Shown here: piece by piece, positions 3,112 through 33,431 of the stretch
How positions within the stretch are numbered: the stretch's first letter is position 1
How the letters are laid out: every line of letters begins with the position of its first letter
From: a virus
Strand: one strand, 5' to 3'
IMG/VR virus record: IMGVR_UViG_3300017963_000102
DNA length: 44,822 nt
The notes under the pieces: generated by a model
The model's input: only the letters and a program-made list of their open reading frames with translations
Database searches by the model: none
Told to the model about the DNA's origin: nothing
Made by a program: the position numbers and the translations under genes

Positions 3112-3117
3112 TGTCGA

Positions 3118-4934: not shown

Positions 4935-4956
4935 CGTGCGCGGAAGGAGCTCTGTC

Positions 4957-5346: not shown

Positions 5347-5355
5347 GAGCTGCGT

Positions 5356-6039: not shown

Positions 6040-6054
6040 TGAAGGAGAGCAACC

Positions 6055-6557: not shown

Positions 6558-6632
6558 CTAACGCGCGGCGGACGCTGGGCGGCGGATCTCGGACCCCCGC
6601 CGTCAAGGCTGCACCCTTCAAGCGTCTGTGCA

Positions 6633-6670
6633 GAGGCGCTGGGGACTGGTTCCTCAGCGCCTCGTTTTTT
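6633..6670 (+). terminator. rho-independent terminator upstream of portal gene
   Basis: A 9-bp stem (GAGGCGCTG at 6633..6641 pairs with CAGCGCCTC at 6655..6663) is followed by GTTTTTT. Confidence 0.75.
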
Positions 6671-6681
6671 GGGGGTAGGTC

Positions 6682-8958: not shown

Positions 8959-8979
8959 GCGGCCGAACGGAGCAGAGTC

Positions 8980-9717: not shown

Positions 9718-9870
9718 AAGCGGTTTCCCAATTGGCCCGCCGGCGCGTGCGCACGCCGGTTGTGCTGCGGGTGGCGTGGAAGTGCCGGGATTCACGGAAA
9801 CCCACCCGTAGCCGGGTCAGACTTATGACCAGGAGCGCCCGGGCTCCGCCAACTATGGAGTTGCGGAGCA

Positions 9871-11112: not shown

Positions 11113-11172
11113 CGTAGGGCGGGACCGGCAATCGGCCCGCACAAGCAACCAGAAAGTTAGGAGACTGGACCA

Positions 11173-13455: not shown

Positions 13456-15464
13456 TGCCGAACCGGCGACCCAAGTTCACTGGCCCGTTCCTGGGGCTCA
13501 ACACGACGTTGACACCCCGGGACCTGGATGCGCGGTGGGCGGTCGACGCCCAGAACGTGCTCCTCAGCGACGGGCGTGTCCGGCCGGCCTGGCCCCTGTC
13601 GTTGTGGGGCGGGACGGATCCGGAGGCAGCCTGGCCGGCCGTGACTTGGCAGGAGGGCTGGGTCAGCCCGATGGGCAACCAGATCCATTGGGATTCGCCG
13701 AAGGTCGGCGAGATCATCGTGTTCCAGTCGTACCTGCAAGATCGGGGGTGGCGCTACTGGGCTGCTTACCCTGACGGGCGCGTGCTGGACCTGGCCCCCT
13801 CGCAGCCGCGCCCCGCGTGTTACGTGCCGGCGTACGGACGGCTCTACATGCTGGACGGTGCGGACCCCCGGAAAACCGACGGGACGATCGAGGGGACGGT
13901 GCTCGCCGGTTTGTTTCCGCCGACGGGAGCAGCCCGCCTGGTGCGCGACGACAACACCGAGGGGTGGGCGATCCTCGAGGAGGGCACCTACGAGTACGCG
14001 ATCACGTACTACGACGAGGAGCATGACGTCGAGAGCAATCCGTACAACCTGGGCCAGATCGACATCACGGCGAGTGAGGAGCATCGGGCCCAGATCCAGG
14101 TGACGGGCGAGCCACTTGCGAATCGCCATGTGACCCACTGGCGGCTGTACCGGAAGGACATCCACCTGGGCACGCCGTATTTTCTGCTGCGCAGTCAGAG
14201 GAAGTACGAGGCCGGGAGCTTGTACGACCCGTACGGGACGCGGACCGACCCGACGCCGGCGGAGGGCAACACGACCACGGGCCCCTTCGCGCCGAGCAAA
14301 AACGGCGTGCCGCCCAAGGCGACGGTCGGTTGTGTCTACCGGGACCGGATGTTCTACAACAACTCGGTGACGACCGACGGCCGGGATGACCTGCTGCACT
14401 ACTCGGCGTTCGGCCGACCCGACCACGTGGATCCGGACGACTACGAGACGCTGACCGGAGATGCCCAGAGCGGAATCACCGGTATGGCGGAGTTGCAGAA
14501 GCAGCTGGTTCTTTTGAAGCCCAAGTCGATCTGGGTCCTCAGCGGCACGATCGTGACTTCGACGAACGAGACGATCGCGACGGGCGCGACGGCGCCGAGC
14601 TCGTCGCACTCCCTCGGGAAGACGAAAGCGACCATCGGGTGCGCGAACACCGAGGGCGGGAACGGTGCGATCGTCGTGGGCGAGCCTGAGCGTCTGCACT
14701 TCAACGGCGAGGCCGGTCTGTACTCTTTCGACGGGGTCGCGGAGCGGAACCTGGCCAAGAACATCAAGGACACCTGGCGGACCTTCGCCAAGCGGAGGAG
14801 CGAAACCGAGGGCGAGAAGAACCAGCAGGTGAGCTACGCGGTGGACACGGTCAACCGGATCCTCTTCATCGCGAACGGTGTGCAGCCCTGGGGAGATCCC
14901 GAGATCCTCGCGTACCACTACGGTCGCGAGGGGCCGGACGGAGTCGGCGGCTGGACGTACCTGCGATCGCCCTGGCGTGCCAGGCCGTACTGCTCGGTTG
15001 CCACGACGCTGGGCGACATCCACGAAGCGGAGGATGACGCGGAGGCGACGTTCTACGCGCCGCTGATGGTTGCATGCGCCGACGGCAAGATCCGGATCGG
15101 CAACGACCGGTCCGAGATCCTCGAGATGCCGCGGTTCCGCTATGAAACCCCTCCGCTGCGTCCGCTGGACGGAGGCCTCGCCCACATCTATCAGGTGACC
15201 TGGCTGCACGGCCGGGTGGTCAGCGACGACGACTACCCCCGCGACTTCGAGTTCGGGCACCGAGCCAAACGAGAGGAACAGTACGAGCTGCGGAGGAGAT
15301 CCCTGCGCTACGCGGCTTCGCAGCATCAGCCGATCAGCAGGGAATCGGACGAGATCAGTCTGCTGGTGCAGAGCCCGAGCGGTCTCGGCGACACGATGCA
15401 CTGGCATCCGGATATGGGCCTGGCGGGATGGATCCTCGAGTTCGAGCCCGCCGGCGGTTACTAG
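13455..15464 (+). CDS. large tail structural protein (nozzle/tail-tube-like)
   Basis: GTG 13455 overlaps the upstream TAG by one base (TAGTG). The 669-aa product has coding bias only from this point within the longer 13155..15464 ORF. The function is assigned from position only. Confidence 0.45.
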   Translation: MPNRRPKFTGPFLGLNTTLTPRDLDARWAVDAQNVLLSDGRVRPAWPLSLWGGTDPEAAWPAVTWQEGWVSPMGNQIHWDSPKVGEIIVFQSYLQDRGWRYWAAYPDGRVLDLAPSQPRPACYVPAYGRLYMLDGADPRKTDGTIEGTVLAGLFPPTGAARLVRDDNTEGWAILEEGTYEYAITYYDEEHDVESNPYNLGQIDITASEEHRAQIQVTGEPLANRHVTHWRLYRKDIHLGTPYFLLRSQRKYEAGSLYDPYGTRTDPTPAEGNTTTGPFAPSKNGVPPKATVGCVYRDRMFYNNSVTTDGRDDLLHYSAFGRPDHVDPDDYETLTGDAQSGITGMAELQKQLVLLKPKSIWVLSGTIVTSTNETIATGATAPSSSHSLGKTKATIGCANTEGGNGAIVVGEPERLHFNGEAGLYSFDGVAERNLAKNIKDTWRTFAKRRSETEGEKNQQVSYAVDTVNRILFIANGVQPWGDPEILAYHYGREGPDGVGGWTYLRSPWRARPYCSVATTLGDIHEAEDDAEATFYAPLMVACADGKIRIGNDRSEILEMPRFRYETPPLRPLDGGLAHIYQVTWLHGRVVSDDDYPRDFEFGHRAKREEQYELRRRSLRYAASQHQPISRESDEISLLVQSPSGLGDTMHWHPDMGLAGWILEFEPAGGY

Positions 15465-19530: not shown

Positions 19531-19728
19531 GTGTTGTTTAACGTCGTCGCCCGGGACGAGGTTGCCCCTGACAAGATGTACGTTGTCATCCCGGGGGAGT
19601 ATTCGTTGGTTCCGGAGGATGAACAGGCGGCTTGGGTGGAGGGCGACAAGTTCGTAATTCGCCAGGACTTCCGGCTGAGGCTGAGCGAGCCGCAGAACTG
19701 TGCCGTCATTACGAACATCGGGAGATGA
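19531..19728 (+). CDS. hypothetical protein (65 aa)
   Basis: GTG start with AAAGGAG upstream and ordinary amino-acid composition. Confidence 0.6.
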   Translation: MLFNVVARDEVAPDKMYVVIPGEYSLVPEDEQAAWVEGDKFVIRQDFRLRLSEPQNCAVITNIGR

Positions 19729-19734: not shown

Positions 19735-22700
19735 ATGCCCGACGAACCGAGCCTCCTGGACGTCGTGGCCCGTCGGTACGCCGAGAGCCGGGACCGCGTT
19801 CCTCCTGAGGCCGATGACGATCTGTTTCGAGCTGCGCAGCGTCACCAGCTGCCCCCGCTCGAGACTGCTGAACAGGACATCTTCAATGCCGCGCAGGCGG
19901 TGTTCCAGGGCGCGGCGGTCCCCGAGATCCGTCCGGCAGCACCCAGCCCAGAGCAACAGGCCCGTGACCGCGCAGCTGAGGAGAACATCCCCCTCCTCGA
20001 GCGACGTCCTGGAATAGAGGAACCCTACGGCGAGCTCGAGCGACGGGTGGCCCAGCGTGTCATCCGGGAGCAGGAGATCGGGGCGGAGGACTACGGAGAG
20101 CGGCGCCGGCTGTTCGATGAACGCATGGAGGCCGCGGCCCGCGAACGGTGGGCGGAGCGGGTCCGCGCCGAGCGTGAGCAATTCTACCGGGAGAACCCCG
20201 AGGCACGTCCCCCCGAGGCGATCGACCTGACCCGTCCGCAGATGGGGCCACCCGCGCCGGAACCGAAGCGTAAGCGGGTGGGGGCCTTGAAGCGTCTATT
20301 CGGCCCGCTGGTCAGAACCACGCAGGCACCGGCCCGCGTCACCGGGCGACTCATGCAGGAAACCCGCGCGAGCACCCTGGTCAACGAGATCGTGGAGCGG
20401 GAGACGCGGCACCGAAGACGAAACAAGTTACACACCCCCGAGCAGCTCGAGACCCAGTACGGTGTCGACGCGGCGGTGCGCCAGGAGCTCCTCGGCGGGT
20501 TTCCGATGTACGACGACCAGGCGTTCGACAAACAAAAGCAGCTCTACATGCTCTGGAAGTCCATCGAGGACAGCCATGGCGAGGCCTTGCCCGAGGCCCA
20601 GGGGTGGCTCGAGAAGCTGGCCACGTTCGGTGGGGATCTGGGCGCTTTCATCGCAGAGATCAGCATACTGCGGCAGACACCGGGTCTGGCCAGGTATTCG
20701 CGGCAGTACGCTCGAGGCGTGGCACCGGTCACGGCGCCGACCGGCCCCGAAGCACTCCGCCAGGCTACCAGGCAGCACCAGGTCGCCGGCGTGGCCCGCG
20801 AAACCCTCGCAGCTGGCGGGGTCGGCGCACTGCACGGAGAGGATCCGTTCCAGGCCATGCTGACGTTCGCTCCGTTCGGGGCGACCAGGTTCCTCAAGCC
20901 TGTGCAACGGACGATGGCGCAGTCTGCCCTGTTCGCTGGTCCGGACGTCATGGCTGGCGAGTGGCAGGACGCCATTGTGCATGGTGTCTTCGGCCCGCTG
21001 ATTTTCTCGATCCCGGATATGATCCGGTACCCGTTCCGAGCTCGCGGCGCTCGCCCGGAACCCATCGGAGACTGGGAACGCTTCGCCGATTCACCCAGCC
21101 AGGTCGAACGCCTGATCTACCGGTACATGAGCATCAACCGTGAAGTGCAGGGGTTCGCAGGACGCGAGGTCAGCGCAAACGAACTGAGAACGGCACAGAG
21201 CGAGGCGGGCCAGGCCGCGCAGGCCCTGGCGCGTCACTACGCTCGTGCCCAGGAAGGTCGGGGGGAGTACTCGCGCCAAGAGCAGGCGCTGCTGCGTGAG
21301 TTCGTCCACCATCACAGACCGGAGGCCGTGCAAGGCCGATGGCAAGAGGAGGCTCGTCATGCCCCTGAAGAAGGGATGCAACCAGGCGAACGTGTCGTCG
21401 AACATCCGAGAGATGAAGGACGCAGGCCACCCCCAGAAGGTCGCGGTCGCGGCGAGCCTCCGCGCGGCGGGGTGACCCCTGAAGAAGGACGCGGGCCAGT
21501 TGGCCCGACGGAAGCCAGGCCCCAAGAAAGGCCGCAAGCACGGCCCGAAGTGACCCCGAAACCTCCGGCCCCGCCCCCCTCTCCGGGACCGGAGGCCCCA
21601 CCAACAGCGGCACCGCCGAGACCGTCGGTCTCGGCTCCCAAGAAACCCGAACCGAGGCCGCCCGGCGGTGCCGCGCCTGGTGTACAAGTCGGTCAGCGGA
21701 CCGGATCCACAGAAGGCTACAAGGAGCGGTACCTCCAGCTTTACGGCGAGGAGATGCCGGCGTGGGCGGAGTCTCTTATCGAGACGCGACGGAAGGGCCC
21801 CGAGGGCGGAGGCAGGGAGGCACTCAAGGATGAACTCCGCTCCCTCGGGGTTCCTGAGAACCAGCTGAACCGGATGGCGATGACGTGGTATTTCCCGGAG
21901 ATGCCGGACCGGCCGTCGACGGTGATGGAGGCGATCAGGAGGACGAAGGAGGCGATGGCGCCGCCACCAGCCGAACCGGAGCGCCCCCCGGTCGCTGAGG
22001 AGGCTGCTGCAATCGAGCCCCCGGCTGACCTGCTGAAGTGGTGGGACGGCTTGAGTAACGCCGACCGCGCCGACGCGGCGGTGACGTTCGGCTGGACCAA
22101 GCAGGACGCGGCTCGCTACGCACAGGCCAGGTGGCAAGACCTTGCGAGGAGTGTCCAGGAGCACCTCGTCGAACGGTGGGAGAAGATGACCGAGACCGAT
22201 CGGGCGCAGCTGGGGCTGCCCAGGAGGCAAGCAGAGCAGCCGGTGCCGACGCCTGAGCCGGTCGACGTCGACGACGAAATCACACCAGAGACGATGCAAG
22301 CGGTTGGCCGTGAGCCCGAGGCGCCGGCGGAGCCGCCGGCGCTGCGAGCGGGTCTCGCTGAAGAATGGTGGGACAAGGAACTCACAACAGCAGGTAGACG
22401 GGACGTCCTTGCAGCCCTGGGACGGGAAGACGCGGCGGCGGAACTCGTGAGCCCGAAAGTTCGATGGCGACACATCCGTCACGACATGCAGGACGTTCTG
22501 CGGAGGGCCCTCGCAGAACGCACGTTGCCCCAGGAGCTATGGCCGGAGGAAATGACGCCGCCGGACGCAGCACAAGCGTGGTGGACAAATGCATCCCTTG
22601 CAGAGCGCCGGCGTGCGGCGGAGCAGATCGGCTACATCGAGGAGCATGGGGCGAAGCTGCTGGCCAAGGTGAGCTGGGAGCAGCTGAGTGCCGACGTGCA

Positions 22701-25700
22701 AGGCGACCTTCGAGCGGCAGTCGCCAGAGGGGAGCTGGGGGCACCAGAGCCCGCTCCGCAGCCTGTCGCAGCGCCCAGTGGGCCAGCGGCGCCGGAACGT
22801 CCCGTAACACCCCCGGAGGCGCCAGAGCTCGCCGAGGGGCCTGAGCCCCCCTTGCCGGGCATGGGTGACGTCGTGCGGGCCCGGCTTGTTTCCACCTACC
22901 GGAAGCTGCTGGCCCAGTACAAATCCCTGGTGCAGGAGGGGTACAAGTCCCCGGTTTACCAGGAGATCGTCGCCCGGAAGTCACGCGACTGGGAGCGCCA
23001 CGTGATTCCGGGTTCGGATATGGAGCGTGTACGCCAGGGCGGACCGTTCGACATCGGGAAGGACATCACGGATCAGTTCGAGAGCCCGCTGGCAATCGCG
23101 GAAACCAAGCGTAAGGACGCCATGGCCGTGTTCGAGTCGTGGCCTGAAGCCCGTGCCGTCGCGATCGCCAGGGACGTGGGGATAGACAAGCCGAGCCGGA
23201 CGCTGCTTGGTATACTAGAACAGGAGGCCGCAAGTGAAACGCTACCGACACGGGAAGAGGGTCCGCAGCCCCCGCCGGAAGAACCGGAAGGGCCAGCCGG
23301 ACTACCCACTCCGATTGGCCCCAGCCCAGGACCAACACCCACTGCTGGAGCCCCAGAGCCCGCCGCCCCAGGTGAGCGAGAAGGAGGCCGAGAGCCTGCT
23401 GTCAGCGAGCGGCCTCGAGGCGAAGAAGCACTGGGCGAAGCACCTACCGAAGCTGTTCGCGAGCCTCGTCCAGCAGAACCGGCTGAACCGGGCGCTTTAC
23501 CTGGCCCAGGAGCTGACGTTGAGGGCCGTCCACCGGTACCGGGAGAACGGCGTGCCGGCGAACCAAGCCCTGAGCCTAGTGAGCCAGGAGTGGCTCCTCC
23601 CGCCAAGCGAAGACGAAAGGCGCCTGGAGAACGAGCTCGCGGGGAACCTCGAGCCCGACCAGGTGCTCGCGAGCTACCACAAGAGGAGGGGGCGGTTCAG
23701 CCCAGGCCTGCCGAGCCCGAGCCGGAACCAGTCACCCATACCGAGCCCACCGTCGGAGGAAGCGACTACATAATCGCCGAGGACGATCCCCTGTTTGCCG
23801 AGGGGATGGGCAAGCGCGCAGCCCGCACCAACATCCAGGCGATCAGGGTGCTGAAGGAGGTGGAGTCCGAGAACCGTCCGGCCACGCCCGAGGAGCAGAC
23901 CCAGCTGGTGAAGTACCTCGGCTGGGGCTCGATGTCGGAAACCTTCAACACCTGGCGAACGGAGTGGGACGCGATCCGGAAGGAGCTCCAGGGCGTGCTG
24001 GACGCCGACGAGTACCAGGCCGCGGCCGACTCGACGAGCAACGCGATGTACACGCCTCCGCGGATCATCAAGGCGATGTACGCGGCGGTGATCGGTTTCG
24101 GGTTCCGGGGCGGGAGCGTCCTCGAGCCCGCGTCGGGTGTCGGGCACTTCTTCGGACTCATGCCTCCGGAGCTCCGCAAGCTGGTGACTCGCGTGGGGAT
24201 CGAGAAGGATTCGATCAGCGCGCGGATCGGGGCCCTACTCTACCCGCGGTCTGACATGCGTCGGACGCCGTTCGAGGAGGCCCAGCTCCCCAAGGACTAC
24301 TTCACGCTCGCGATCAGCAACGTCCCCTTCGGGAACGTGGCGATCTTCGACCCGCGGTACCCGCAGTGGGCGACGGCTGCGATTCACGACTATTTCTTCA
24401 TCAGGTCGCTCGACCTGGTCCGGCCTGGCGGGGTGGTGGCGTTCATCACCAGCAACGAGACCATGGACAAGGCCACGCCCTACGTGCGCCAAGGGATCGC
24501 GGAGAGAGCGGACCTGCTCGGTGCGGTCCGACTGAACAACAAGTCGCTGCCTGGCACACAGGTGGTGGCGGACATTATTTTCCTTCGCAAGCGCCTACCA
24601 GGTGAGGAGCCGGGGGGAGAGGCCTGGCTCAAATCCCCCCGGCTGCCGGAGCTCCGCGACTACACCGTCAACGAGTACTTTCATGCGCACCCGGAGATGG
24701 TCCTCGGCACATTCGCGCCGGGCACGTTCCACGCTCGTGGGGCCCGCATCACGGTCAACCCGCGGTCGAAGGAGGATCCTCTTGAAGGCCTGGCCGAAGC
24801 CGTCGCGGCGCTGCCTCACAACGTGATGACCGAGGCGGGCGACGTCACCGCGCCGAAGGATCCCGCCGACCTGGTCATGGCCCCGACCAGGGTACCTGTC
24901 GGCTCGTTCTTCCGGGTGGGTGACAAAGTGCACTACAAGGGGGAGAGCGAGACGGCGCCGCCGGCGGCAGTGATCGTGCGCGGCGAGATCCAGGCGAAGG
25001 AGCGGGCCAAAGCGGCGCGGAAGATCAAGCCAGGGCAGAAGCGGCCGGCCCTGCTCACGGCGAGCCAGATCGACAAGCTGGTCGCGGAGCGTGTCGAGCT
25101 CATCGGCGCCCAGGTGGAGCTCCGCGACGTTGTCCTCGAGCTGCTTCACCGGCAGGCCGTCAACGACGCCGAGGGATGGAAGGGGGCCCAGCGGGACCTG
25201 ACCAGAATCTACGACGCTTTCGTGAAGAAGTACGGCTACCTGCACAAACCGAAGAACGTCCGCGCCCTGGGCGACGACTACCACACCGCCGGCGTCCTGG
25301 ACGCTGTCGAGGTCTGGGATCCGAAGACGAAGCGGGCCACCAAGGCGCCGATCTTCGAGCGGCGCATGATCGCAGCTCACGAACGCAAGCTCCGCGCCGA
25401 GAGTCCGCAGGACGCGATCAACACGTCCATGAACGAGTACGGCAAGCTCGACCTGGCGTATATGGCCCAGCTGCTCGAGACGACGCCGGCGGGAGTGAAG
25501 CAGCAGCTGCTCGAGGGCGCCCTGGCGTTCGAGAGTCCCGCCGGCGAGCTCGTCGTCCGAGACGAATACCTTTCGGGGAACGTCCGCCAGAAACTCGCCG
25601 ACGCCGAGGCGGCTGCCCAGATGGATCCGGACCGGTACCGGGGAAACGTGGAGGCGCTGCGTGAGGTCATTCCCAAGGATCTGACGGTCAGCGAGATCAC

Positions 25701-28700
25701 CCCGCAGCTGGGCGCCCCCTGGATCCCGCAGGAGATCGTCCAGGCGTTCGGGCTGCACCTGTTCGGGGCGACGGAACGGGGCGGGCTGTTCATCCGGTAC
25801 ATCCCGGAGCTCGGCAAGTGGATCGTGCGCGGCGGGTACGAGGTGAGTTCGACGGTCGCAGCCAGGAGCAAGTGGGGAATGCCCGATCGACCAGGCCCGC
25901 AGCTGCTTGGTGACGCTCTCAGCAACCGGGCGCCGATCATCAAGGTCCAGGTAGGCGAGCGCGAGGACGGGACTCCGATCATGGAGGAGGACCCGATCGC
26001 GAGCGACGCCGCGGCCGAGAAGATCAAGGTGATCCGGGCCGAGTTCGAGCGGTGGATCTGGTCGGAGCCGAAGCGCACGAACCAACTGGTGAAGGCCTAC
26101 AACTTCGCGTTCAACAACCAGGCCCCTCGTGACTACGACGGCAGTTACTTAACTTTTCCGGGGATGAGTCCGACCTGGAACCTCTACGACTACCAGCGTA
26201 ACGCGGTGGCGTTCAACCTTCAGCGTGGATCCGGCCTGGTCAACCTCGAGCCCGGGGCGGGCAAGACGATGATCGCGATCGCCACGGCTCGCGAGCTCGT
26301 CCGTCTGGGCATGGCCCGCAAGCCGATGATCGTGGTGCAGGCCTCCACGCTGGAGCAGTTCCGACGTGACGCCAAGAGCATGTACCCGGGACACAGCTGG
26401 ACGGTGCTGACGGAGCAGGACACCGCGCCGGCGAACCTGCGCAAGACCCTGGCGAAGATCGCGACGACGGAGAGCACGGTCGTCATCATGTCGCACGAGC
26501 GTCTGCTGAAGCTGCCCATGTCGGCGGAGTACACGACCGACTACTTCGAGGAGAGGATCAACGACCTGAGCCGGGCGAAGGAGGCCGCGGCGCAGCTCGA
26601 GGGCGAGCACGGACGCACGGCAAAGGAGCTCGGCAAAGCCAGGGCCCGGATGCGCGTGCAGCTCCAGAAGCGTCTGCACGCGCTGAAGCAGATGGAGGGC
26701 ATGGGGTTCGAGCAGCTCGGGATCGACTACGTCATCTACGACGAGTCGCAGCGACTGAAAAACCTGGCGTACCAGACGCAGATGCAGCGAGTGAAGGGTC
26801 TGGGGCCCACCGAGGGCAACAACACCACGTTCGACGCCGAGATGAAGACAAAATACCTCCTCCGCCTCCAGAACGGGCGCGGGGTTCTGTTCCAGACTGC
26901 CACGCCGGTCTCGAACTCGATGGTCGAGCTCTACAACCTGACGCGGTTTCTGGCGCCGACGATGCTCGAGGGTCGCGGGATCACGACGTTCGACCAGTGG
27001 GTGGGCTCGTTCGGGTCCGTCGAGTCCGACGTGGAGAGCCTGGGCGAGGGCGGGTACCGGGACGTCCGCCGGCTGCGCGACTACGTGAACGTCGACGACT
27101 TCATGGCGATGTACGCAGACCACACCTACGTGGTGTCGAAAGACGACGTCCACGCCAGGTGGAAGGCCGAGGGCCGGCCGGCGCCCCTGATCGCGAAGAA
27201 CGCCGATGGTGAGCGGACCTGGCGTCTGATCGTCTCCCCGCCGAACGCGGCACACGAGGCCTACGTGAAGACGATCAAGGCGCGGGCGGAGGCCCTGAAG
27301 AAGCGGAAACGCCGGCCACGCAAGGGCGAGGACAACATTCTCAACGTCATCACCGACAACCGGATCGCCGGCCTTGACCTGAAACTGCGCCGGCCCGATG
27401 CCCCGCGCCACCCAGAGGACAAGATCAGCCGCCTGGCCCAGGAGATCATCACACGCCACGAGCGTGACGCCGGCGAGCGGCTGACGCAGCTCGTCGCCAT
27501 GAGCTTCGGGATTCCAAAGCCCGGCGAGTACTCCACGTACCACGAGCTCCGCGACCTGCTCGTCGAGGGCGGGATCCCCAAGGAGGAGATCGCGATCCTC
27601 CAGGAGGTCTCCGCGCAAAAGCGTCAAGAGCTGTTCGACAAGATGAACCGCGGCGACGTCCGCGTGCTCATGGGGACGATTCAGCTGCTGGGCATTGGGG
27701 TGAACGTGCAGGCCCGGCTCAAGACGTTGCACCTGGCGGATCCGGCGTACACACCAGACCGGATCGAGCAGATCCAGGGGCGAGCGGTCCGCCCAGGAAA
27801 CATGAACACCGAGGTCGAGCTGCTCGCCTACGTGCAGAAGGGCAGCGCCGACGAATTCATGTATTCGCTCGCGTTCCACAAGTGGCGGTTCCAGGGTGCT
27901 CTCCTCAGCGGGACGTTGAAGGGGGCCCGGACCTTCCAGGACGTCGACGTCATCGCCGGCGGGTTCGAGGCTGCGATGGCCCACGCCTCGAGGGCCCCGG
28001 TGGTCCTCGAGTGGACGAAAGCACGTAAGGCCCTTCAGCACTTGCAACGGCTGAAGACGGCCCACGAGGGCAGCCAGCGGGAGCTCCGCGCGCAGCTGGG
28101 GCGGTTGCAGGAGCTGGCCGACCGGATCCGGACCAGGACGCTGCCCGCGGCCCAGCGCGGGGCGAAGCTCGTCGGTGACGCCGCGGAGCAGGCCCTCCAG
28201 GTCACGGTGGGCGGAGTCACGTACACGAAGCCCGGAGAGGCGGGCGTGGCTCTGAACGACGCGGTGATGGCTATGCCGTTGAGCAGCGAGTTCCGACCGC
28301 TGGGCACAGTCAACGGCGTGGAGATCGAAGCGGCTCACGAGCAGCGGACCAGTGTGCATGAGACGTATGACGTCGCCATGTTTCGGCTTGCCGGCACGTC
28401 CATCACGTTCGGGTCGGAGCAGGGGGGGCACTGGTACCCCCAGGCTATCGACATCCACCCGAAACTGAAAAAGACCGGCGCGTCGTACATCACGAGGGAC
28501 GCCAAGCGGCTGCTCGAGATCCCGGCACAGCGGGCGGAACGCCTCCAAGAGCGTCTGGAGAAGACCGAAGCTGAGCTGGCCAGCGGCGAGAAGGAGCTGG
28601 GCCCGTTCGCGCGTGAGGCCGACCTGGCGGAGTACACCGCCAAGGAGGCGAAGCTGTCCGCGCAGGTCGAGGCCCTCGGCGCCGAGCCGGTCAAGCCGGG

Positions 28701-31470
28701 CGACACGTTCACGATGGAGGGCACGGAGTACAAGTACGTCCGGTCGATCGGCGATGAGATCGAGCTCGACATCATGGCTGCCCAGGGCCCTGACGTCGGA
28801 GAGGTCGGGGACGTCGCGGTTGCTCCCGAGGCCGCGGAGTCAAGGCGGTTTCCGCGGGCGGACCTGGTCGCCAAGCTGAAACGGGAGTTCGAGCTGACGG
28901 AGGACAAGCCCGGTACCAGCCCGGACGCCGGCGAGTGGCGGGAGCTCGAGCAGGAAGGGTACAGGCCGGCCAACTGGCTCGCGGGGGTGCCGGCGAACCA
29001 GCGGGCGAGTCTGCTGAAGTGGATCCGGGAGCACGGACCCGATCATCCGGCTTACGGCATGGGGGCGATGTTCAACTTTCCCGACGTCCGCGGGACCTGG
29101 ACGCGCATCTGGGACGGGTTCGCCGATTCGCTCCGGAGTCTGCCCCCTGGTCTCCGCAAGAAAGTTGTTGACGCGATCGGGCGGGCGGTCTGGGGTACCG
29201 ATCGGTGGAACGTGGATCCGGACGCCTGGCGTGCGATCCAGCGTTATCACGGCGGGATGCGCGAGGCGAAGTATGACGCGGACAAGATCACGGGGGCTGT
29301 AGAGGCTCGCATGGGCGAGCTCGAGAAAATGTACGGGCCCGGTGCCCGGGAGACGTTCAACAACTTACTCACCGACGTGGCGGAGGGACGCGAGGATCCG
29401 GCGCGCCTGGATCCGGTGAGCCGCCAGGTCTACGAACGGTATCGCGCCAAGGTGAACCAGCTCACGGACGAGTTCCTGAACGAGACCCACCTGCACAGCT
29501 ACGCGGAGGGGTTCGGCCTGACGAACCTGCTCGAGATCATCCAACGCAAGCGGGAGAGCCCGGGCGCCTACCTCCGCATGATCTTCCGGGAGCAGTACGA
29601 AACCGAATGGGCGGAGGGAACCCACCGGGAGAAGGTCCACAAACCGCGCAAGAAGCTCGAGGAGCGGAAGCGGATCCGGGCGATTCAGGGCGGGATGTTC
29701 AAACATCGGGCGTCGGCGGACCTCTGGACCGTCCGCAACTTCGACGGGACGTTCACGCAGTTCACTGACGCCGACCGCGCGTACGAGCACGCGAGGGAGC
29801 AGATCGACAACCCGGAGCTGAAGGAGCGGTATGGCACCAGCCTCGAGCAGCGTGTGCGCGTGACGGATCCCTTCGGCGAGGAGGCACTCGGCCACCTGGT
29901 ACCCGAGAAAAACATCCTGGTTCGGATGGGGCGGACCATCACCGACTGGCGGCACAACCTCGAGGTGCTTCGCCTGTTCTGGTACATCGACCAGACCGTC
30001 GCGAACGCCGAGAGGGTGGCGGACGACTGGGTACGCACGCCGCGCCACCCGCGGTGGGGGCCATTGGCGGAGAAGTACATCCCGCGCGAGCTCGCCGATG
30101 GCCTCATGGAGACGATTGTCGTGCGGACCGGGCTGTTGTCGCAGCTGTACGACTCCTACCTCTACGCATGGAAGGCGAGCAAGGTGGTCTACAATCCGTC
30201 GACCTGGGGCCGGAACATGCTGGGGCTCAACTTCTTCTGGCTCATGGACGGGATCCACCCGGTCAAAGATGCGCGCTGGTTCGTCGAGGCCGTGCGGCAC
30301 TTCCGGGAAGGGACGCCGACCTTCCGCCGGCTGCTGCGGGAGAACGAGATCAGCGCGGGGTACGCCGAGACGGAGATCGACCGGATCGACAAACTGATCC
30401 GGGATCCGCAGAATACCGTGACCACGGCGCTGGCCAAGTTCCTGAGCAGGCTGGACAGGATCACCAGGAAGACGGGGAATCTGTACGATCTTCCCGACCA
30501 GATCAGCAAGATGGCGTCCTACCTTCGCCATACGTCCGGCCAGGGGTGGAGTCACGAGGAAGCGGTCGCCGCGCTGCAAGGCTACCCGAACTACGCCAGG
30601 CGCGGGAACCTGACGGCCTGGGCCCGCCGCAGTCCGTTCGGGGCTTCGTTCATCGCTTTTGCCGGGGCCTCGGTGCAGGTGAACCTGCACTACGCCAGGA
30701 CGCGACCAGGCCGGTTGCTGATGATGTGGTTGTTGCCGGGGCTGACCACGCTGCTGACGAGTGTGATCCTCGGCCTGGAGGACGAGGAGATTGCGCTCGT
30801 GAACCATGGCGTCCGGCGCAAGACGAAGTCCCCCCTCGGCCGCTACGACCCGTTCGCGTGGATGGACCGGTATTTCATGCCCCTGCTGCCTTGGCGCGAC
30901 GATCAGGGCCGGGTGCGGCAGCTGGATCTGCGGTGGATCTTCCCGCTGGCCAATGATTTCCGGGTAAACACGGGGCCTGGCGGGTTCGGGATTCCCCTCC
31001 TGCTGTCGCAGCCCCTGACCAAGACGGGGATCGAGATCGCGATGAACCGGTCGAGCTGGACGGGCCGCGACATCGCCCGGGAGCACGACGAGCCGGTCGA
31101 GAAGGTGAGGGCGATCGCGAAACACGTGTTCGAGGGTGTTATCCCGCTGCCGACCATCACCACGCGCGGAGCGCGCCGGATCTACCTGGCGGCGACCGGC
31201 GATGAACGCTACCCGCTCATCAAGACCATCCTGAAAGAGCTGTTCGGGATCAACGTGTCGGCGCCATGGATCCGCCGAGAGGATGCGTTCCGAATGCTGA
31301 AGGAGATGAAGGGGGAGAAGGCCGCCAAGGCGTTCGAGGTCGCCTTGACGGCCTACAACGAAATCTACCGGTCCGACCGTGACAAACGCATCAAGAGCCG
31401 GGCGGTCTCCCAATCCCTACGACAGGGGCGGCGCCGGGAGTTACGATCTGCGAGGACCGGTCGGGGGTAA
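19735..31470 (+). CDS. giant 3,911-codon ORF: N6-adenine DNA methyltransferase + SNF2-like helicase (P1 DarB-like) with long N- and C-terminal extensions
   Basis: ATG with GGGAG upstream. Methyltransferase motif I is VLEPASGVGHFFG (~24118..24157) and motif IV is ISNVPFG (~24313..24333). Helicase motifs are motif I LEPGAGKTM (~26248), motif II IYDESQ (~26734), motif III FQTATPVSNSMVELYNL (~26890) and motif VI QIQGRAVRPGN (~27769). A hydrophobic helix (LLMMWLLPGLTTLLTSVILGL) lies at ~30710..30780. Continuity as one protein is uncertain because of two frame-switch islands (see findings). Confidence 0.75.
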   Translation: MPDEPSLLDVVARRYAESRDRVPPEADDDLFRAAQRHQLPPLETAEQDIFNAAQAVFQGAAVPEIRPAAPSPEQQARDRAAEENIPLLERRPGIEEPYGELERRVAQRVIREQEIGAEDYGERRRLFDERMEAAARERWAERVRAEREQFYRENPEARPPEAIDLTRPQMGPPAPEPKRKRVGALKRLFGPLVRTTQAPARVTGRLMQETRASTLVNEIVERETRHRRRNKLHTPEQLETQYGVDAAVRQELLGGFPMYDDQAFDKQKQLYMLWKSIEDSHGEALPEAQGWLEKLATFGGDLGAFIAEISILRQTPGLARYSRQYARGVAPVTAPTGPEALRQATRQHQVAGVARETLAAGGVGALHGEDPFQAMLTFAPFGATRFLKPVQRTMAQSALFAGPDVMAGEWQDAIVHGVFGPLIFSIPDMIRYPFRARGARPEPIGDWERFADSPSQVERLIYRYMSINREVQGFAGREVSANELRTAQSEAGQAAQALARHYARAQEGRGEYSRQEQALLREFVHHHRPEAVQGRWQEEARHAPEEGMQPGERVVEHPRDEGRRPPPEGRGRGEPPRGGVTPEEGRGPVGPTEARPQERPQARPEVTPKPPAPPPSPGPEAPPTAAPPRPSVSAPKKPEPRPPGGAAPGVQVGQRTGSTEGYKERYLQLYGEEMPAWAESLIETRRKGPEGGGREALKDELRSLGVPENQLNRMAMTWYFPEMPDRPSTVMEAIRRTKEAMAPPPAEPERPPVAEEAAAIEPPADLLKWWDGLSNADRADAAVTFGWTKQDAARYAQARWQDLARSVQEHLVERWEKMTETDRAQLGLPRRQAEQPVPTPEPVDVDDEITPETMQAVGREPEAPAEPPALRAGLAEEWWDKELTTAGRRDVLAALGREDAAAELVSPKVRWRHIRHDMQDVLRRALAERTLPQELWPEEMTPPDAAQAWWTNASLAERRRAAEQIGYIEEHGAKLLAKVSWEQLSADVQGDLRAAVARGELGAPEPAPQPVAAPSGPAAPERPVTPPEAPELAEGPEPPLPGMGDVVRARLVSTYRKLLAQYKSLVQEGYKSPVYQEIVARKSRDWERHVIPGSDMERVRQGGPFDIGKDITDQFESPLAIAETKRKDAMAVFESWPEARAVAIARDVGIDKPSRTLLGILEQEAASETLPTREEGPQPPPEEPEGPAGLPTPIGPSPGPTPTAGAPEPAAPGEREGGREPAVSERPRGEEALGEAPTEAVREPRPAEPAEPGALPGPGADVEGRPPVPGERRAGEPSPEPSEPGVAPPAKRRRKAPGERARGEPRARPGARELPQEEGAVQPRPAEPEPEPVTHTEPTVGGSDYIIAEDDPLFAEGMGKRAARTNIQAIRVLKEVESENRPATPEEQTQLVKYLGWGSMSETFNTWRTEWDAIRKELQGVLDADEYQAAADSTSNAMYTPPRIIKAMYAAVIGFGFRGGSVLEPASGVGHFFGLMPPELRKLVTRVGIEKDSISARIGALLYPRSDMRRTPFEEAQLPKDYFTLAISNVPFGNVAIFDPRYPQWATAAIHDYFFIRSLDLVRPGGVVAFITSNETMDKATPYVRQGIAERADLLGAVRLNNKSLPGTQVVADIIFLRKRLPGEEPGGEAWLKSPRLPELRDYTVNEYFHAHPEMVLGTFAPGTFHARGARITVNPRSKEDPLEGLAEAVAALPHNVMTEAGDVTAPKDPADLVMAPTRVPVGSFFRVGDKVHYKGESETAPPAAVIVRGEIQAKERAKAARKIKPGQKRPALLTASQIDKLVAERVELIGAQVELRDVVLELLHRQAVNDAEGWKGAQRDLTRIYDAFVKKYGYLHKPKNVRALGDDYHTAGVLDAVEVWDPKTKRATKAPIFERRMIAAHERKLRAESPQDAINTSMNEYGKLDLAYMAQLLETTPAGVKQQLLEGALAFESPAGELVVRDEYLSGNVRQKLADAEAAAQMDPDRYRGNVEALREVIPKDLTVSEITPQLGAPWIPQEIVQAFGLHLFGATERGGLFIRYIPELGKWIVRGGYEVSSTVAARSKWGMPDRPGPQLLGDALSNRAPIIKVQVGEREDGTPIMEEDPIASDAAAEKIKVIRAEFERWIWSEPKRTNQLVKAYNFAFNNQAPRDYDGSYLTFPGMSPTWNLYDYQRNAVAFNLQRGSGLVNLEPGAGKTMIAIATARELVRLGMARKPMIVVQASTLEQFRRDAKSMYPGHSWTVLTEQDTAPANLRKTLAKIATTESTVVIMSHERLLKLPMSAEYTTDYFEERINDLSRAKEAAAQLEGEHGRTAKELGKARARMRVQLQKRLHALKQMEGMGFEQLGIDYVIYDESQRLKNLAYQTQMQRVKGLGPTEGNNTTFDAEMKTKYLLRLQNGRGVLFQTATPVSNSMVELYNLTRFLAPTMLEGRGITTFDQWVGSFGSVESDVESLGEGGYRDVRRLRDYVNVDDFMAMYADHTYVVSKDDVHARWKAEGRPAPLIAKNADGERTWRLIVSPPNAAHEAYVKTIKARAEALKKRKRRPRKGEDNILNVITDNRIAGLDLKLRRPDAPRHPEDKISRLAQEIITRHERDAGERLTQLVAMSFGIPKPGEYSTYHELRDLLVEGGIPKEEIAILQEVSAQKRQELFDKMNRGDVRVLMGTIQLLGIGVNVQARLKTLHLADPAYTPDRIEQIQGRAVRPGNMNTEVELLAYVQKGSADEFMYSLAFHKWRFQGALLSGTLKGARTFQDVDVIAGGFEAAMAHASRAPVVLEWTKARKALQHLQRLKTAHEGSQRELRAQLGRLQELADRIRTRTLPAAQRGAKLVGDAAEQALQVTVGGVTYTKPGEAGVALNDAVMAMPLSSEFRPLGTVNGVEIEAAHEQRTSVHETYDVAMFRLAGTSITFGSEQGGHWYPQAIDIHPKLKKTGASYITRDAKRLLEIPAQRAERLQERLEKTEAELASGEKELGPFAREADLAEYTAKEAKLSAQVEALGAEPVKPGDTFTMEGTEYKYVRSIGDEIELDIMAAQGPDVGEVGDVAVAPEAAESRRFPRADLVAKLKREFELTEDKPGTSPDAGEWRELEQEGYRPANWLAGVPANQRASLLKWIREHGPDHPAYGMGAMFNFPDVRGTWTRIWDGFADSLRSLPPGLRKKVVDAIGRAVWGTDRWNVDPDAWRAIQRYHGGMREAKYDADKITGAVEARMGELEKMYGPGARETFNNLLTDVAEGREDPARLDPVSRQVYERYRAKVNQLTDEFLNETHLHSYAEGFGLTNLLEIIQRKRESPGAYLRMIFREQYETEWAEGTHREKVHKPRKKLEERKRIRAIQGGMFKHRASADLWTVRNFDGTFTQFTDADRAYEHAREQIDNPELKERYGTSLEQRVRVTDPFGEEALGHLVPEKNILVRMGRTITDWRHNLEVLRLFWYIDQTVANAERVADDWVRTPRHPRWGPLAEKYIPRELADGLMETIVVRTGLLSQLYDSYLYAWKASKVVYNPSTWGRNMLGLNFFWLMDGIHPVKDARWFVEAVRHFREGTPTFRRLLRENEISAGYAETEIDRIDKLIRDPQNTVTTALAKFLSRLDRITRKTGNLYDLPDQISKMASYLRHTSGQGWSHEEAVAALQGYPNYARRGNLTAWARRSPFGASFIAFAGASVQVNLHYARTRPGRLLMMWLLPGLTTLLTSVILGLEDEEIALVNHGVRRKTKSPLGRYDPFAWMDRYFMPLLPWRDDQGRVRQLDLRWIFPLANDFRVNTGPGGFGIPLLLSQPLTKTGIEIAMNRSSWTGRDIAREHDEPVEKVRAIAKHVFEGVIPLPTITTRGARRIYLAATGDERYPLIKTILKELFGINVSAPWIRREDAFRMLKEMKGEKAAKAFEVALTAYNEIYRSDRDKRIKSRAVSQSLRQGRRRELRSARTGRG
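21359..21475 (+). CDS. nested +1-frame small ORF (38 aa) inside the giant ORF
   Basis: GGAGG (21348..21352), a 6-nt spacer, then ATG 21359. The product is MPLKKGCNQANVSSNIREMKDAGHPQKVAVAASLRAAG. The +1 frame carries the G/C third-position signal here. After TGA 21473..21475 the same frame continues with a Lys-rich tail to TGA 21551..21553. Confidence 0.5.
   Translation: MPLKKGCNQANVSSNIREMKDAGHPQKVAVAASLRAAG
23234..23773 (+). CDS. nested +1-frame ORF (179 aa) inside the giant ORF; TnpV-like helical core (tentative)
   Basis: AGGAGG (23222..23227), a 6-nt spacer, then GTG 23234. This is the first start after TAG 23216..23218 in this frame. Hand count over 23372..23701: 102/110 codons end in G/C in this frame against 44/110 in the giant-ORF frame. 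The product reads as a normal helical protein (HWAKHLPKLFASLVQQNRLNRALYLAQELTLRAV...EWLLPPSEDE). Confidence 0.55.
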   Translation: MKRYRHGKRVRSPRRKNRKGQPDYPLRLAPAQDQHPLLEPQSPPPQVSEKEAESLLSASGLEAKKHWAKHLPKLFASLVQQNRLNRALYLAQELTLRAVHRYRENGVPANQALSLVSQEWLLPPSEDERRLENELAGNLEPDQVLASYHKRRGRFSPGLPSPSRNQSPIPSPPSEEATT

Positions 31471-31699
31471 GCATCGGCTGGAACCGCAGCCGCAGGTCGA
31501 ACTGGAGCACCTGTTCCTCTGCGTTCGGATCCTCCTGGTACAGCAGTAGATCATCAAGATGTTCCGCGTCGAGCATCGCCCCCAGGGGCGGGATCTTCGG
31601 GAACGCCTGGCCGTTGACGACGTCGACCACCACCCAGGTCGGGTTCTGCGGGTCGCCCAGTAACAGTAAGACAACACTCGTTCGTGCCTGCTCCGCCAT
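31391..31699 (-). CDS. hypothetical acidic protein
   Basis: Minus-strand ATG with AGGAG 4-5 nt upstream; 102 aa. The 3' ~80 nt overlap the end of the convergent giant ORF. Confidence 0.6.
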   Translation of the reverse strand: MAEQARTSVVLLLLGDPQNPTWVVVDVVNGQAFPKIPPLGAMLDAEHLDDLLLYQEDPNAEEQVLQFDLRLRFQPMLTPDRSSQIVTPGAAPVVGIGRPPGS

Positions 31700-31705: not shown

Positions 31706-31939
31706 CTACCTCGTGATTGTGACCGTGATCCCGCGGGCCATGAGCTGTTTGAGCTGACGCTTCGTCACGGTCTGGCCCGTATGAAACTCCACGATGTTCC
31801 GCTGGCGGGTCACCGTGTACGACGTCCGCTTTCCCCCCTGGCTTGCCTCCCGGACCCACACGTTCGGACGCAGCAGCAGCGTCTTGGGGTCCTTGTCGCC
31901 CTTCTGCCTCCTCTTTGCCTTCTTCTTCGACTTGCGCAT
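31706..31939 (-). CDS. hypothetical basic protein (77 aa)
   Basis: Minus-strand ATG with AAGGAG 7 nt upstream. It has a Lys/Arg-rich N-terminus (MRKSKKKAKRRQKGDK) and is the first gene of a two-gene leftward operon. Confidence 0.7.
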   Translation of the reverse strand: MRKSKKKAKRRQKGDKDPKTLLLRPNVWVREASQGGKRTSYTVTRQRNIVEFHTGQTVTKRQLKQLMARGITVTITR

Positions 31940-32076: not shown

Positions 32077-32367
32077 AGCCAAGGCATTCTCCAGTCTGGT
32101 CGAAGCGCGCCGGTGGCAGGGATGCCCCGGTGACCAGGCGTGGGGCAAGGACCGCGGGAACGACGTGGAGCGGAGCACTTAGCCATGTGCAGGACCAAAG
32201 ACCTCGGACCTCCCTGGCGAAGGCAATCCTCTCTCTCCGCTCCACGTCGCCGCTGGTCATCGGCTTCTTTACGGGGGTGCGAGCGGGGACCTGCTGACCG
32301 CGGTTCTCATGGTGGCCATGGTCGGTCGCGCCCCGCCGCCCCTGTTTGTTCACCTGTGAGGTAAGTT

Positions 32368-32664
32368 GTGACTATTCCGCAGTTTCCACGGAGCAAGAAC
32401 CAGGCACGCATCGCCATGGCCCTTCTCGCGGGGTGGGTCTCGACGGAAGCCGTAGTTGCTCACAGCAAATGCAACAAGCGCACTGCGCAACGTGCCCTCC
32501 GCCTCATGGAGACCTTGGGTCTTGTGGAAAACCGGGTGCAGCACTCGCACTTTGGCAGCCAATCCATGTGGTTTCCGAGGCACCGGACAATGTGGAACGG
32601 CTGTGTAGCACGGCGTTGTCGGCAGCGTCTCGGCCTCAAGAAGAAGCGAAAGTCACGGAAGTGA
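32368..32664 (+). CDS. winged-helix/HTH DNA-binding protein (putative transcription regulator)
   Basis: GTG start with GAGGT upstream; 98 aa. The HTH-like segment is WVSTEAVVAHSKCNKRTAQRALRLMETLGLVE and the C-terminal tail is basic. Confidence 0.65.
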   Translation: MTIPQFPRSKNQARIAMALLAGWVSTEAVVAHSKCNKRTAQRALRLMETLGLVENRVQHSHFGSQSMWFPRHRTMWNGCVARRCRQRLGLKKKRKSRK

Positions 32665-33431
32665 CAGGCCCTACGATGACTACGACTCGTAGAAAACCAG
32701 TCACAAAGACCTGTGCAATCGCCACCCTGTTGGTAACCGCAGCACACGCGGCGGAGCCGTACCTCGAGATCGCGATCGTCCCCAGCCCAGCCCGCCCTGA
32801 CCAGGGCGACTTTGTCGTCTCTCCGTGCGATGGTTCGTGGAACATGATCCTGATCTGGGCCCGGGCGGTCGACGGCCCGGTCGAGGTTGGATCGTGGACG
32901 TTCGATTTCGCCGGGAGCGGCGCCGCGGTGGTGGTGGATTGCGCGTTTTCCCCCCCGATGGTGAACCGCAGCTTCAGCGGGATCCCGGGGAGCAGCACAG
33001 ACAACGACTGCGCCGACGGCCTGGTCGCCTGGGACCGCGGAACGGGCTGGACGCTGACTTTCCAGCCCGAGGCGTGGTACTGGTGGCTCTACCTGTTCGT
33101 GTCCCTCGATGATGCCTGCGAGCGTGATGGAGACACCAAGCTCCAGGCCGGCGGTGTAGCGTTCGAGATCCGGGACCGAGCGGGGGAGCTTATTGAAGTA
33201 CGCGGGGCGACCTACCGTGACCTGGCCCCGGCCTGCTACGAGCCGGACACGGTCTGCCCAGCCCGGCGACCGTACTGCACGGCAGACTATACCTGCGCGG
33301 CCTCGCACCCCGCTCGTCTCGGGACCTGCGGGGAGTGCGAGGCCGTTGAAGATTGTGCGCGTGGCGAGACGTGCGTGTGTGGATCCTGCGAGTTCGAGGG
33401 CACCCGGCTACGCCGGCGGGAGGTGAAGTAA
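32661..33431 (+). CDS. secreted Cys-rich protein with Sec-type signal peptide
   Basis: GTG 32661 overlaps the upstream TGA (GTGA); ATG 32676 is an alternative start. The signal peptide is TTTRRKPVTKTCAIATLLVTAAHA/AEP. The C-terminus has many Cys (CPARRPYCTADYTCA...CGECEAVEDCARGETCVCGSCEF). Confidence 0.65.
   Translation: MTGPTMTTTRRKPVTKTCAIATLLVTAAHAAEPYLEIAIVPSPARPDQGDFVVSPCDGSWNMILIWARAVDGPVEVGSWTFDFAGSGAAVVVDCAFSPPMVNRSFSGIPGSSTDNDCADGLVAWDRGTGWTLTFQPEAWYWWLYLFVSLDDACERDGDTKLQAGGVAFEIRDRAGELIEVRGATYRDLAPACYEPDTVCPARRPYCTADYTCAASHPARLGTCGECEAVEDCARGETCVCGSCEFEGTRLRRREVK

Follow-up and report, generated by a model that had tools for sequence, protein, structure and literature searches.

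The window analysed here, a stretch of 44,822 nucleotides of viral DNA (IMG/VR record IMGVR_UViG_3300017963_000102), carries on its plus strand an uninterrupted open reading frame (ORF) of 3,911 codons, which starts with ATG and occupies positions 19735..31470. Its product, referred to below as the giant, is probably a capsid-packaged and ejected polyvalent protein, in which a delivery chassis flanks a DarB-type anti-restriction cargo. Polyvalent proteins were defined by Iyer, Burroughs, Anand, de Souza and Aravind in 2017, with DarB of phage P1 as the archetype (PMC5512222). Giant DarB-like virion proteins, an under-studied means by which phages deliver anti-defence enzymes before their genes are expressed, have previously been described from short-tailed phages, and the present case does not overturn current understanding. 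Specific to it are the very divergent lineage in which the gene is found, and the occurrence of the methylase-SNF2 cargo in a chassis other than the Bcep22/SopranoGao type.

A giant open reading frame in a complete and divergent genome

The first 94 bp of the window are repeated, exactly and in direct orientation, as its last 94 bp (positions 1-94 and 44729-44822), which indicates that the genome is complete at 44,728 bp and either circularly closed or terminally redundant. The giant ORF takes up 26.2% of this circle; an earlier reading of the letters alone, hereafter the original prediction, had given its length and boundaries exactly and had put it at about a quarter of the genome. The encoded protein has a predicted mass of 437 kDa and an isoelectric point of 6.6. 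In every 200-codon block of the ORF the G+C fraction lies between 0.58 and 0.92 at third codon positions (GC3) and between 0.40 and 0.61 at second positions (GC2), and the remaining five frames carry 17-113 stop codons across the same region; since this coding signal holds throughout while the other frames are interrupted, the frame is regarded as real and not as a product of chance. A GGGAG ribosome-binding site is present at 19720-19724, 10 nt ahead of the ATG, and an identical 3,911-aa product (P0151) has been called in the ENA metagenome assembly ERZ27256783, on contig k141_2597562 of 44,869 bp. The G+C content of the window is uniform at about 65%, with a positive GC skew all along. A megablast search with the giant gene against 50,697 phage records gave no match, and the capsid protein of the window is at most about 24% identical to those of isolate phages; the phage lineage is highly divergent and has no close isolate.

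The DarB-like core

The middle of the giant, at positions 23656..28686 (aa 1308-2984), is occupied by a DarB-like core. A helical domain comes first, ahead of the N6-adenine methyltransferase, and a long linker separates the latter from an SNF2-type ATPase. The core matches phrog_10089, annotated as 'DarB-like antirestriction', with E=0 and 1,200 bits over profile positions 1535-3214 of 4647, and Pfam recognises two domains, SNF2-rel_dom (aa 2153-2347, E=2.7e-9) and Helicase_C (aa 2624-2688, E=3.7e-5); the public ENA record has precomputed Pfam matches to WH_1, DUF8437 and Helicase_dom. When the giant was compared by BLASTP with P1 DarB, taken from NC_005856, three collinear segments were aligned, corresponding to the methylase (aa 1439-1619 against DarB aa 92-274, 31% identity, E=5e-19), the SNF2 N-lobe (aa 2078-2472 against 762-1190, E=6e-22) and the region of motif VI (aa 2654-2708 against 1483-1537, E=2e-4), with the SNF2 part lying C-terminal to the methylase in one polypeptide. 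The DarB-like pairing of methyltransferase and helicase that had been proposed from motifs is borne out by the PHROG, Pfam and BLASTP results, and the profile searches keep those motifs within the DarB-like family instead of assigning them to an unrelated one. As for the flanks, the proposed N-terminal extension of about 1,300 codons stands, at 1,307 residues; that of about 1,200 codons at the C-terminal end holds when counted from aa 2708, the last residue aligned to DarB, and becomes 927 residues when the profile match sets the boundary.

The catalytic motifs are present in both enzymes. The gamma-class N6-adenine methyltransferase (24049..24591, aa 1439-1619) contains motifs I (EPASGVGHF) and IV (NVPF) as well as a TP motif; a motif search placed EPASGVGHFFG at aa 1464 (nt 24124-24156) and SNVPFG at aa 1528 (nt 24316-24333), with NVPF itself at aa 1529. 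In the SNF2-type superfamily 2 (SF2) ATPase/translocase (25966..27870, aa 2078-2712), motif I is GAGKT (aa 2174, nt 26254-26268), motif II is DESQ (aa 2336, nt 26740-26751), motif III is TATP, found as TATPVSN (aa 2388, nt 26896-26916) and followed by ELYNL (aa 2398, nt 26926-26940), and motif VI is QGRAVRPGN (aa 2681, nt 27775-27801). All of the motifs quoted in the original prediction were thus recovered in frame, and several have evident counterparts in P1 DarB, the window/DarB pairs being LEPASGVGHF/LEPSAGTGVF, SNVPFG/GNVPFG, GAGKT/GLGKT and TATPVSN/TATPVVN. Judged by its sequence, the core is homologous to P1 DarB and its predicted catalytic motifs are intact.

Ahead of the methylase, and inside the PHROG match, a GWGS motif (23920..23931, aa 1396-1399) fits the G-x-G-[GAS] pattern of LPD36, a domain of four helices with a GxG[GAS] motif that in polyvalent proteins precedes the methylase (Iyer et al. 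2017, PMC5512222). By motif and position a putative LPD36-like domain is placed here; no profile match to LPD36 was obtained. The theme 'SWI2/SNF2 ATPase-adenine methylase-LPD36' has been described as the third most common among polyvalent proteins (PMC5512222), and by its sequence features the giant is assignable both to the DarB-type dyad and to the polyvalent-protein class.

The closest solved sequences to the core are those of the eukaryotic SNF2 remodellers INO80, Snf2 and Rad26, all of them weak matches. Among phages, tblastn with the core retrieved 133 records, at about 30-33% identity over more than 90% of the core length (about 1,650 aa); these include Sinorhizobium PBC5, Erwinia PEp14, Pavtok and Stean, Klebsiella SopranoGao and LASTA, Agrobacterium Atu_ph08, Ochrobactrum POI1126, Pseudomonas Itty13, Ralstonia Heva and Vibrio VvAW1, with 10 records from Burkholderia phages and 21 from Ralstonia phages. 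The same search also returned 2,053 plasmid records.

The C-terminal modules

Downstream of the core the giant continues with two modules, C1 (28687..30024, aa 2985-3430), which is kept only among the closer giant relatives, and C2 (30025..31467, aa 3431-3911), a conserved helical end-module of about 470-480 aa. The C2 family is unnamed and was defined in this analysis with the window protein as the query. An exhaustive HMMER search retrieved 763 representatives at E<=1e-3, 72 of them at E<=1e-30; in the best 150 of the 763, C2 is matched at the C-terminal end of the protein or close to it, and the proteins are mostly 1,000-7,000 aa long. Most hits have C2 alone in common with the giant. A module map, made by local phmmer of five giant segments against these 150 representatives, showed that C1 always stands directly before C2, with or without the DarB-like core, and the core itself was found in 19 of the 150 (after four jackhmmer rounds), the other 131 being 1,416 aa long at the median and 6,021 aa at most. 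In two relatives, P0007 and P0014, C1, C2 and the N-terminal module N1 described below surround a different, unannotated middle, which in P0007 is an insert of about 1,600 aa; and when four core-less C2 proteins (P0007, P0013, P0028 and P0035) were scanned with Pfam, a single small methyltransferase match was obtained, in P0013. The end-modules therefore recur with other cargoes. Because the same cargo also occurs in different chassis, and because many C2 proteins carry another cargo, a role of the end-modules in packaging and ejection, with an exchangeable middle, is supported.

The 19-sequence alignment of C2 (A1) has 11 invariant columns, and the conserved motifs of the family are NPxTHxRN, YPNY and PxRD...DLR. 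An AlphaFold2 (AF2) model built from this alignment is confident and helical, with a predicted local distance difference test score (pLDDT) of 80.9 and a predicted template modelling score (pTM) of 0.74. Structure prediction, one of the checks proposed for the original prediction, thus gave a usable model of C2 with matches among predicted viral structures; a fold match in the PDB was not found (best E=0.85, TM<=0.17). Against BFVD, 30 matches were obtained at E<1e-3, the best with E=2.6e-14 and TM 0.59-0.62, and all 30 are later, C-terminal pieces of long phage proteins, whose names include 'large polyvalent protein associated domain', Zeta toxin, ART-PolyVal, RelA/SpoT, UvrB-type helicase and type I methylase. 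Among these matches are proteins of Cellulophaga phages phi19:3 and phi46:3, of Microbacterium phage Shocker and of Arthrobacter phage GurgleFerb, the last two coming from phage groups whose capsid proteins are nearest to that of the window.

Several distant members of the C2 family lead to annotated proteins of isolate phages. The proteins reached are gp101 of Cellulophaga phi38:1, a 1,691-aa 'structural protein' that is the last in its structural block, a 'virion structural protein' of Cellulophaga phi18:3 and phi19:3, a 'putative structural protein' of Pelagibacter HTVC027P and, in Pseudoalteromonas phage vB_Pun_Y3, an 'ADP-ribosyltransferase' of 1,027 aa. Within A1, one member of the 19 matches PHROG 22602, 'virion structural protein' (E=6e-5). 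The C-terminal 927 aa of the window protein itself gave no match in Pfam, PHROGs, NCBIfam or the sequences of the PDB, nor by tblastn against the isolate phage collection, and its end-modules had no match to the Pfam models searched, a copy that should include the LPD families. A word-indexed protein search returned 0, 1 and 0 matches for the C-terminal 927 aa, the C2 alignment and an N1 query (aa 190-560), respectively; these negatives are considered technical and unreliable at this composition, since the exhaustive HMMER search found 763 representatives, including a 100% identical entry.

It was also considered whether C2 might be the PLxRFG/tail-700 domain (NCBIfam NF032893, about 680 aa), and this identity was rejected at the level of sequence and profile, as the window protein has no match to it at E<=1. 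NF032893 is matched by SopranoGao (E=3e-201), and neither by VvAW1 nor by any of the 19 C2 sequences; likewise, the C2 profile finds nothing in the C-termini of SopranoGao and Pavtok (hidden Markov model E>0.1, hhalign probability 0.3%).

The wide distribution of C2 bears on a different view of the giant, in which it would be mainly a structural ejection or conduit protein whose SNF2 motor, once C2 and N1 had anchored the ejected protein to the membrane, would reel in the genome, with methylation as a secondary matter. Phages N4 and T7 pull their DNA into the cell by means of polymerases, which provides an analogy. In its favour, the C2 chassis has a much wider distribution than the DarB cargo, isolates carry relatives of it with a structural annotation, SNF2 enzymes translocate along dsDNA (Iyer et al. 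2017, PMC5512222), and among the window ORFs scanned no other motor that would bring the genome into the cell was recognised. Nevertheless, the 131 of the 150 best C2 proteins that lack the core are also without an ATPase, so the chassis does not need one; the methylase-SNF2 pair is equally common on plasmids (the 2,053 records), where there is no ejection through a tail; and the genetics of P1 assigns DarB to anti-restriction (PMC5512222). A genome-reeling function is for these reasons regarded as unlikely.

The N-terminal modules

The N-terminal part of the giant comprises N1 (20020..21336, aa 96-534) and N2 (21337..23655, aa 535-1307). N1 is all-helical, with Gly/Ala-rich hydrophobic stretches (FGGDLGAFIAE, TLAAGGVGAL and GVFGPLIFSIPDM), and it is kept at the N-terminus of six giant relatives, namely P0003, P0004, P0005, P0007, P0014 and P0024. 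Its AF2 model is poor (pLDDT 58.6) and gave no meaningful fold match. N2 is a low-complexity linker rich in Pro, Glu, Ala, Arg and Gly, residues that make up as much as 84% of its composition; GC3 is lower across this region and the frame stays open. Among the 150 best representatives, N2 is common to P0024 only. Three loose repeats of about 50-60 aa, of the form 'WW...R...G...W..L...Q..L', can be seen by eye inside N2 at 22027-22764 (aa 765-1010), and in a self-BLAST these were not significant.

Relatives of comparable size include a 3,744-aa protein on a 44.3-kb contig and a 3,691-aa protein on a contig of 46.2 kb. A single-protein locus search returned one related locus, L004 (IMGVR_UViG_3300033407_000965), in which N1 is a separate ORF of 584 aa (355..2109; 32% identity, E=9e-35) located 7 nt upstream of a giant of 3,104 aa (2117..11431) that is 42% identical to aa 1202-3901 of the window protein. 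The two ORFs of L004 are in different frames, which could reflect a genuinely split gene, an erroneous frameshift or programmed frameshifting. It is this locus that raises the question of whether the 3,911-codon ORF is itself an artificial or very recent fusion of N1 (about 580 aa) to a DarB-like giant, brought about by an assembly or frameshift error or by a lost stop codon. The fused form is found, however, in at least six independent relatives (the six named above, with P0155 as a cluster-mate of P0024), the ENA assembly yields an identical product of 3,911 aa (P0151), and across the junction the frame is uninterrupted and its GC3 is that of coding sequence. L004 stands alone in this respect and may have a frameshift of its own. 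An artificial fusion is accordingly the most improbable of the explanations weighed here.

Position at the end of the late operon

The genes upstream of the giant, all on the plus strand, include those for the large terminase subunit TerL (3118..4881), the portal (6682..8958) and the major head protein (9871..11112), together with eight more ORFs that have no family match, except for 13155..15464, which weakly matches the PHROG 'internal virion protein' (E=5e-6), the one signal related to the tail-tube-like and small internal-protein genes of the original prediction. Between a 408-aa gene and the giant lies a small gene with a GTG start and a 65-aa product (19531..19728, plus strand), whose stop codon (19726-19728) directly follows the GGGAG ribosome-binding site of the giant, a placing that suggests translational coupling. 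Beyond the giant the coding strand flips. A gene for a 102-aa protein (31391..31699, minus strand) overlaps the 3' end of the giant by 80 nt, with a G+C fraction of 0.74/0.41/0.77 at first, second and third codon positions and a strong ribosome-binding site, and a gene for a 77-aa basic protein (31706..31939, minus strand) is likewise convergent on the giant; both are present in the ENA record. This change of strand directly past the ORF identifies the giant as the last gene of the late (structural) operon. In Bcep22-like phages, two minus-strand hypothetical genes are likewise found directly after the DarB-like gene, according to the description of phage JC1 (PMC9144972).

Arthrobacter phage Jasmine has distant homologs of the portal (E=3e-23) and capsid (E=5e-19) proteins of the window, with an identity of about 24%. 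The Jasmine late operon ends in a gene for a protein of 1,803 aa, followed by endolysin and holin genes, and its record annotates a tail-spike and neither a tape-measure nor a tail-tube protein; we take Jasmine to be a podovirus. The C2 profile found no sequence match in Jasmine gp29, and the link of C2 to the Jasmine group is drawn from the fold matches in BFVD to GurgleFerb and Shocker and from the homology of portal and capsid. The same place in the genome is held by the DarB-like giants of VvAW1 (3,640 aa, 28% of a 38.7-kb genome), SopranoGao (4,369 aa, then endolysin and holin) and Pavtok (5,007 aa), each of them at the end of the structural module. The slot of an internal virion protein in a podovirus-like genome, in which the original prediction had placed the ORF, agrees with this arrangement.

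Transcription together with the late genes, at the time when progeny DNA is made, would also suit a protein that is never packaged, namely a late methylase-helicase that modifies progeny DNA before packaging and whose flanks are scaffolding or regulatory. Soluble Dam-like methylases are encoded by many phages. Such a role is at odds with the detection of homologous giants in virions: JC1 gp69, of 4,515 aa and encoded by 22% of its genome, was represented by 51 unique peptides when CsCl-purified particles were analysed by mass spectrometry (PMC9144972). The end-modules, moreover, are common to proteins annotated as virion structural, and a 437-kDa protein closing the structural operon would be a costly methylase. 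We consider a non-packaged enzyme quite improbable.

A model for packaging, ejection and protection of the entering genome

We infer that the giant is packaged and ejected, that it makes contact with the membrane, that its enzymes are active and that it confers an anti-restriction phenotype. In the model preferred here, that of an ejected polyvalent protein, N1 and the disordered linker on the N-terminal side and C1-C2 on the C-terminal side would form the chassis, whose end-modules would pack a few copies of the giant into the capsid. On infection, the protein would be threaded out through the short tail, ahead of the DNA or together with it, and the hydrophobic helix of C2 and the Gly/Ala-rich segments of N1 may engage the cell envelope and possibly bridge it. 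The cargo would consist of the LPD36-like domain, the gamma-class N6-adenine methyltransferase and the SNF2-type translocase; once in the cytoplasm, the ATPase may track along the entering genome while the methylase modifies the DNA, or otherwise shields it, in cis, and the restriction enzymes of the host (type I in the case of P1) would thereby be blunted before phage genes are expressed.

This combination of ejection and anti-restriction coincides with the published view of the homologs. P1 DarB is a component of the head and protects DNA in cis against EcoKI-type (type I) enzymes (PMC5512222). The gp47 protein of phi24B, a polyvalent protein of 2,811 aa that is abundant in virions, has been proposed to be a capsid-packaged ejection protein (bioRxiv 10.64898/2026.04.10.717836).

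The hydrophobic helix to which this model gives a part in membrane contact, LLMMWLLPGLTTLLTSVILGL, lies inside C2 at 30715..30777 (aa 3661-3681), as had been anticipated for the region around 30710..30780; with a Kyte-Doolittle value of 1.95 it is the sole strongly hydrophobic 19-mer segment of the giant, and it is the most hydrophobic segment in 12 of the 19 C2 sequences. The VvAW1 giant has one comparable helix about 300 aa from its end, and a short motif, A-x-Y...G-x-s-x-x-e-A...[DN]-Y, stands about 70-100 aa before the helix in the window protein, VvAW1 and SopranoGao, a likeness that is suggestive and not significant.

Several observations weigh against the preferred model. In the AF2 model of C2 the helix is predicted with a pLDDT of about 90 inside a helical bundle (model residues 233-254), and in distant members of the family it is amphipathic and contains charged residues. 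A true transmembrane role of aa 3661-3681 was down-weighted for these two reasons; the findings would suit a helix that stays buried in the soluble, encapsidated protein and could be exposed later, they suit an ordinary core helix equally well, and membrane insertion is treated as a possibility. We know of no biochemical demonstration of methyltransferase activity for DarB itself, which makes the mechanism of protection in cis a deduction even for the archetype. The giant contains neither an HExxH (zincin) motif nor a peptidase match in Pfam, nor a lytic transglycosylase domain by the same profiles, and both domains are common among giants of this type; its C-terminus also lacks the 'PLxRFG / tail-700' domain with which the SopranoGao-type giants end. 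Finally, PHROG and Pfam profiles run on the neighbours and on other ORFs revealed no homologs of DarA, Hdf, DdrA, DdrB and Ulx, while the incorporation of P1 DarB has been stated to need DarA, Hdf, DdrA and Ulx, in the passage of PMC9144972 that cites Piya et al. 2017. Since Dar proteins diverge fast, the absence of these helpers is weak evidence.

A broader proposal, which we offer tentatively and hold to be rather less probable than the model itself, is that N1-C1-C2 constitutes a cargo-agnostic chassis, and that the middle of such proteins is an injected effector, swapped as a cassette across a broad range of mostly uncultured short-tailed phages. The cassettes may include the DarB core, ART, Zeta toxin, RelA/SpoT, other methylases and inserts without annotation such as that of P0007, and C2 may mark the last structural gene in these phages, relatives of Jasmine, Cellulophaga phi38:1 and Pelagibacter HTVC027P among them. 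If this were true, C2 would offer a sequence tag with which metagenomes could be searched for new injected anti-defence enzymes, and in practice the C2 alignment could serve to find further injected effectors.

Other genes of the window

Downstream of the two convergent genes, the GC3 signal is weak and shifting over 31940-33650, which is probably a regulatory or early region. A 361-aa ORF at 32346..33431 looks spurious, and a 98-aa ORF at 32368..32664, which reads like a winged-helix DNA-binding protein, is kept in L004 (28% identity, E=1e-6). The 203-aa protein encoded at 34249-34860 (GC3 0.89) matches weakly the permuted papain-like amidase family C92 (E=1.7e-3) and also a PHROG labelled enoyl-CoA hydratase-like (E=1.5e-9); from these matches it is possibly a cell-wall amidase or lysin, and apart from this candidate no lysis cassette was recognised in profile scans of the window ORFs. 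The only confident domain match in the right-hand third of the genome is that of a 312-aa protein at 40431-41369 to Pfam DUF5131 (E=1.4e-49), and four unannotated downstream ORFs gave nothing in sequence searches of the PDB. Scans of the window recognised neither a polymerase nor a primase, recombinase or integrase, and many of its ORFs remain unannotated. The original prediction had called the giant the only recognisable enzyme of DNA transactions in the genome; no other was indeed recognised among the 34 ORFs scanned, except that the terminase had been overlooked.

Comparison with known systems

The ejection proteins gp14, gp15 and gp16 of T7 and gp7, gp16 and gp20 of P22 are encoded in an analogous position, after the capsid and tail genes, and have a presumed role in crossing the envelope. 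They differ from the present case in being three polypeptides instead of one giant, which has no transglycosylase domain, and no similarity of sequence or profile (PHROG, Pfam) to them was found in the giant or its flanks, nor a fold link to T7 gp14-16. The virion RNA polymerase gp50 of coliphage N4 (3,500 aa) is packed into a podovirus capsid and ejected, and it is tripartite, its catalytic part being central and its terminal regions serving encapsidation and injection. This protein is the closest functional analogy to the window giant, its enzyme being unrelated; the C2 model has no significant similarity to it (PDB 9pnr, E=4, probability 0.10).

P1 DarB, of 2,255 aa, has the methylase and SNF2 domains in collinear order and with matching motifs, but it is without the modules of about 1,300 aa and about 900 aa that the window protein has at its N-terminal and C-terminal ends, and P1 is a myovirus. 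With polyvalent proteins as a class, the giant shares the character of a multi-domain effector (methylase, SNF2 ATPase, N1, C1 and C2) encoded together with portal and terminase genes, as well as the fold of C2, which matches BFVD proteins described as 'large polyvalent protein associated domain-containing'. Unlike many of them, it lacks a self-processing metallopeptidase, a domain that is frequent there and not obligatory.

The nearest comparison is with the DarB-like giants of short-tailed phages grouped in PHROG 10089, that is Bcep22 gp75 and JC1 gp69 from Burkholderia phages, Pavtok gp27, SopranoGao gp6 and the proteins of PEp14, PBC5 and VvAW1. The window protein differs from these in having neither an N-terminal lytic transglycosylase nor a PLxRFG/tail-700 C-terminus, its N1, C1 and C2 belonging to another, unannotated family, and the rest of its genome is unrelated to theirs. 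It resembles them in being the product of a single ORF at the end of the structural operon (theirs are of 3,600-5,000 aa and take up 20-28% of the genome), and in containing the same methylase-SNF2 core, preceded here by a putative LPD36 domain, at 30-33% identity over about 1,650 aa.

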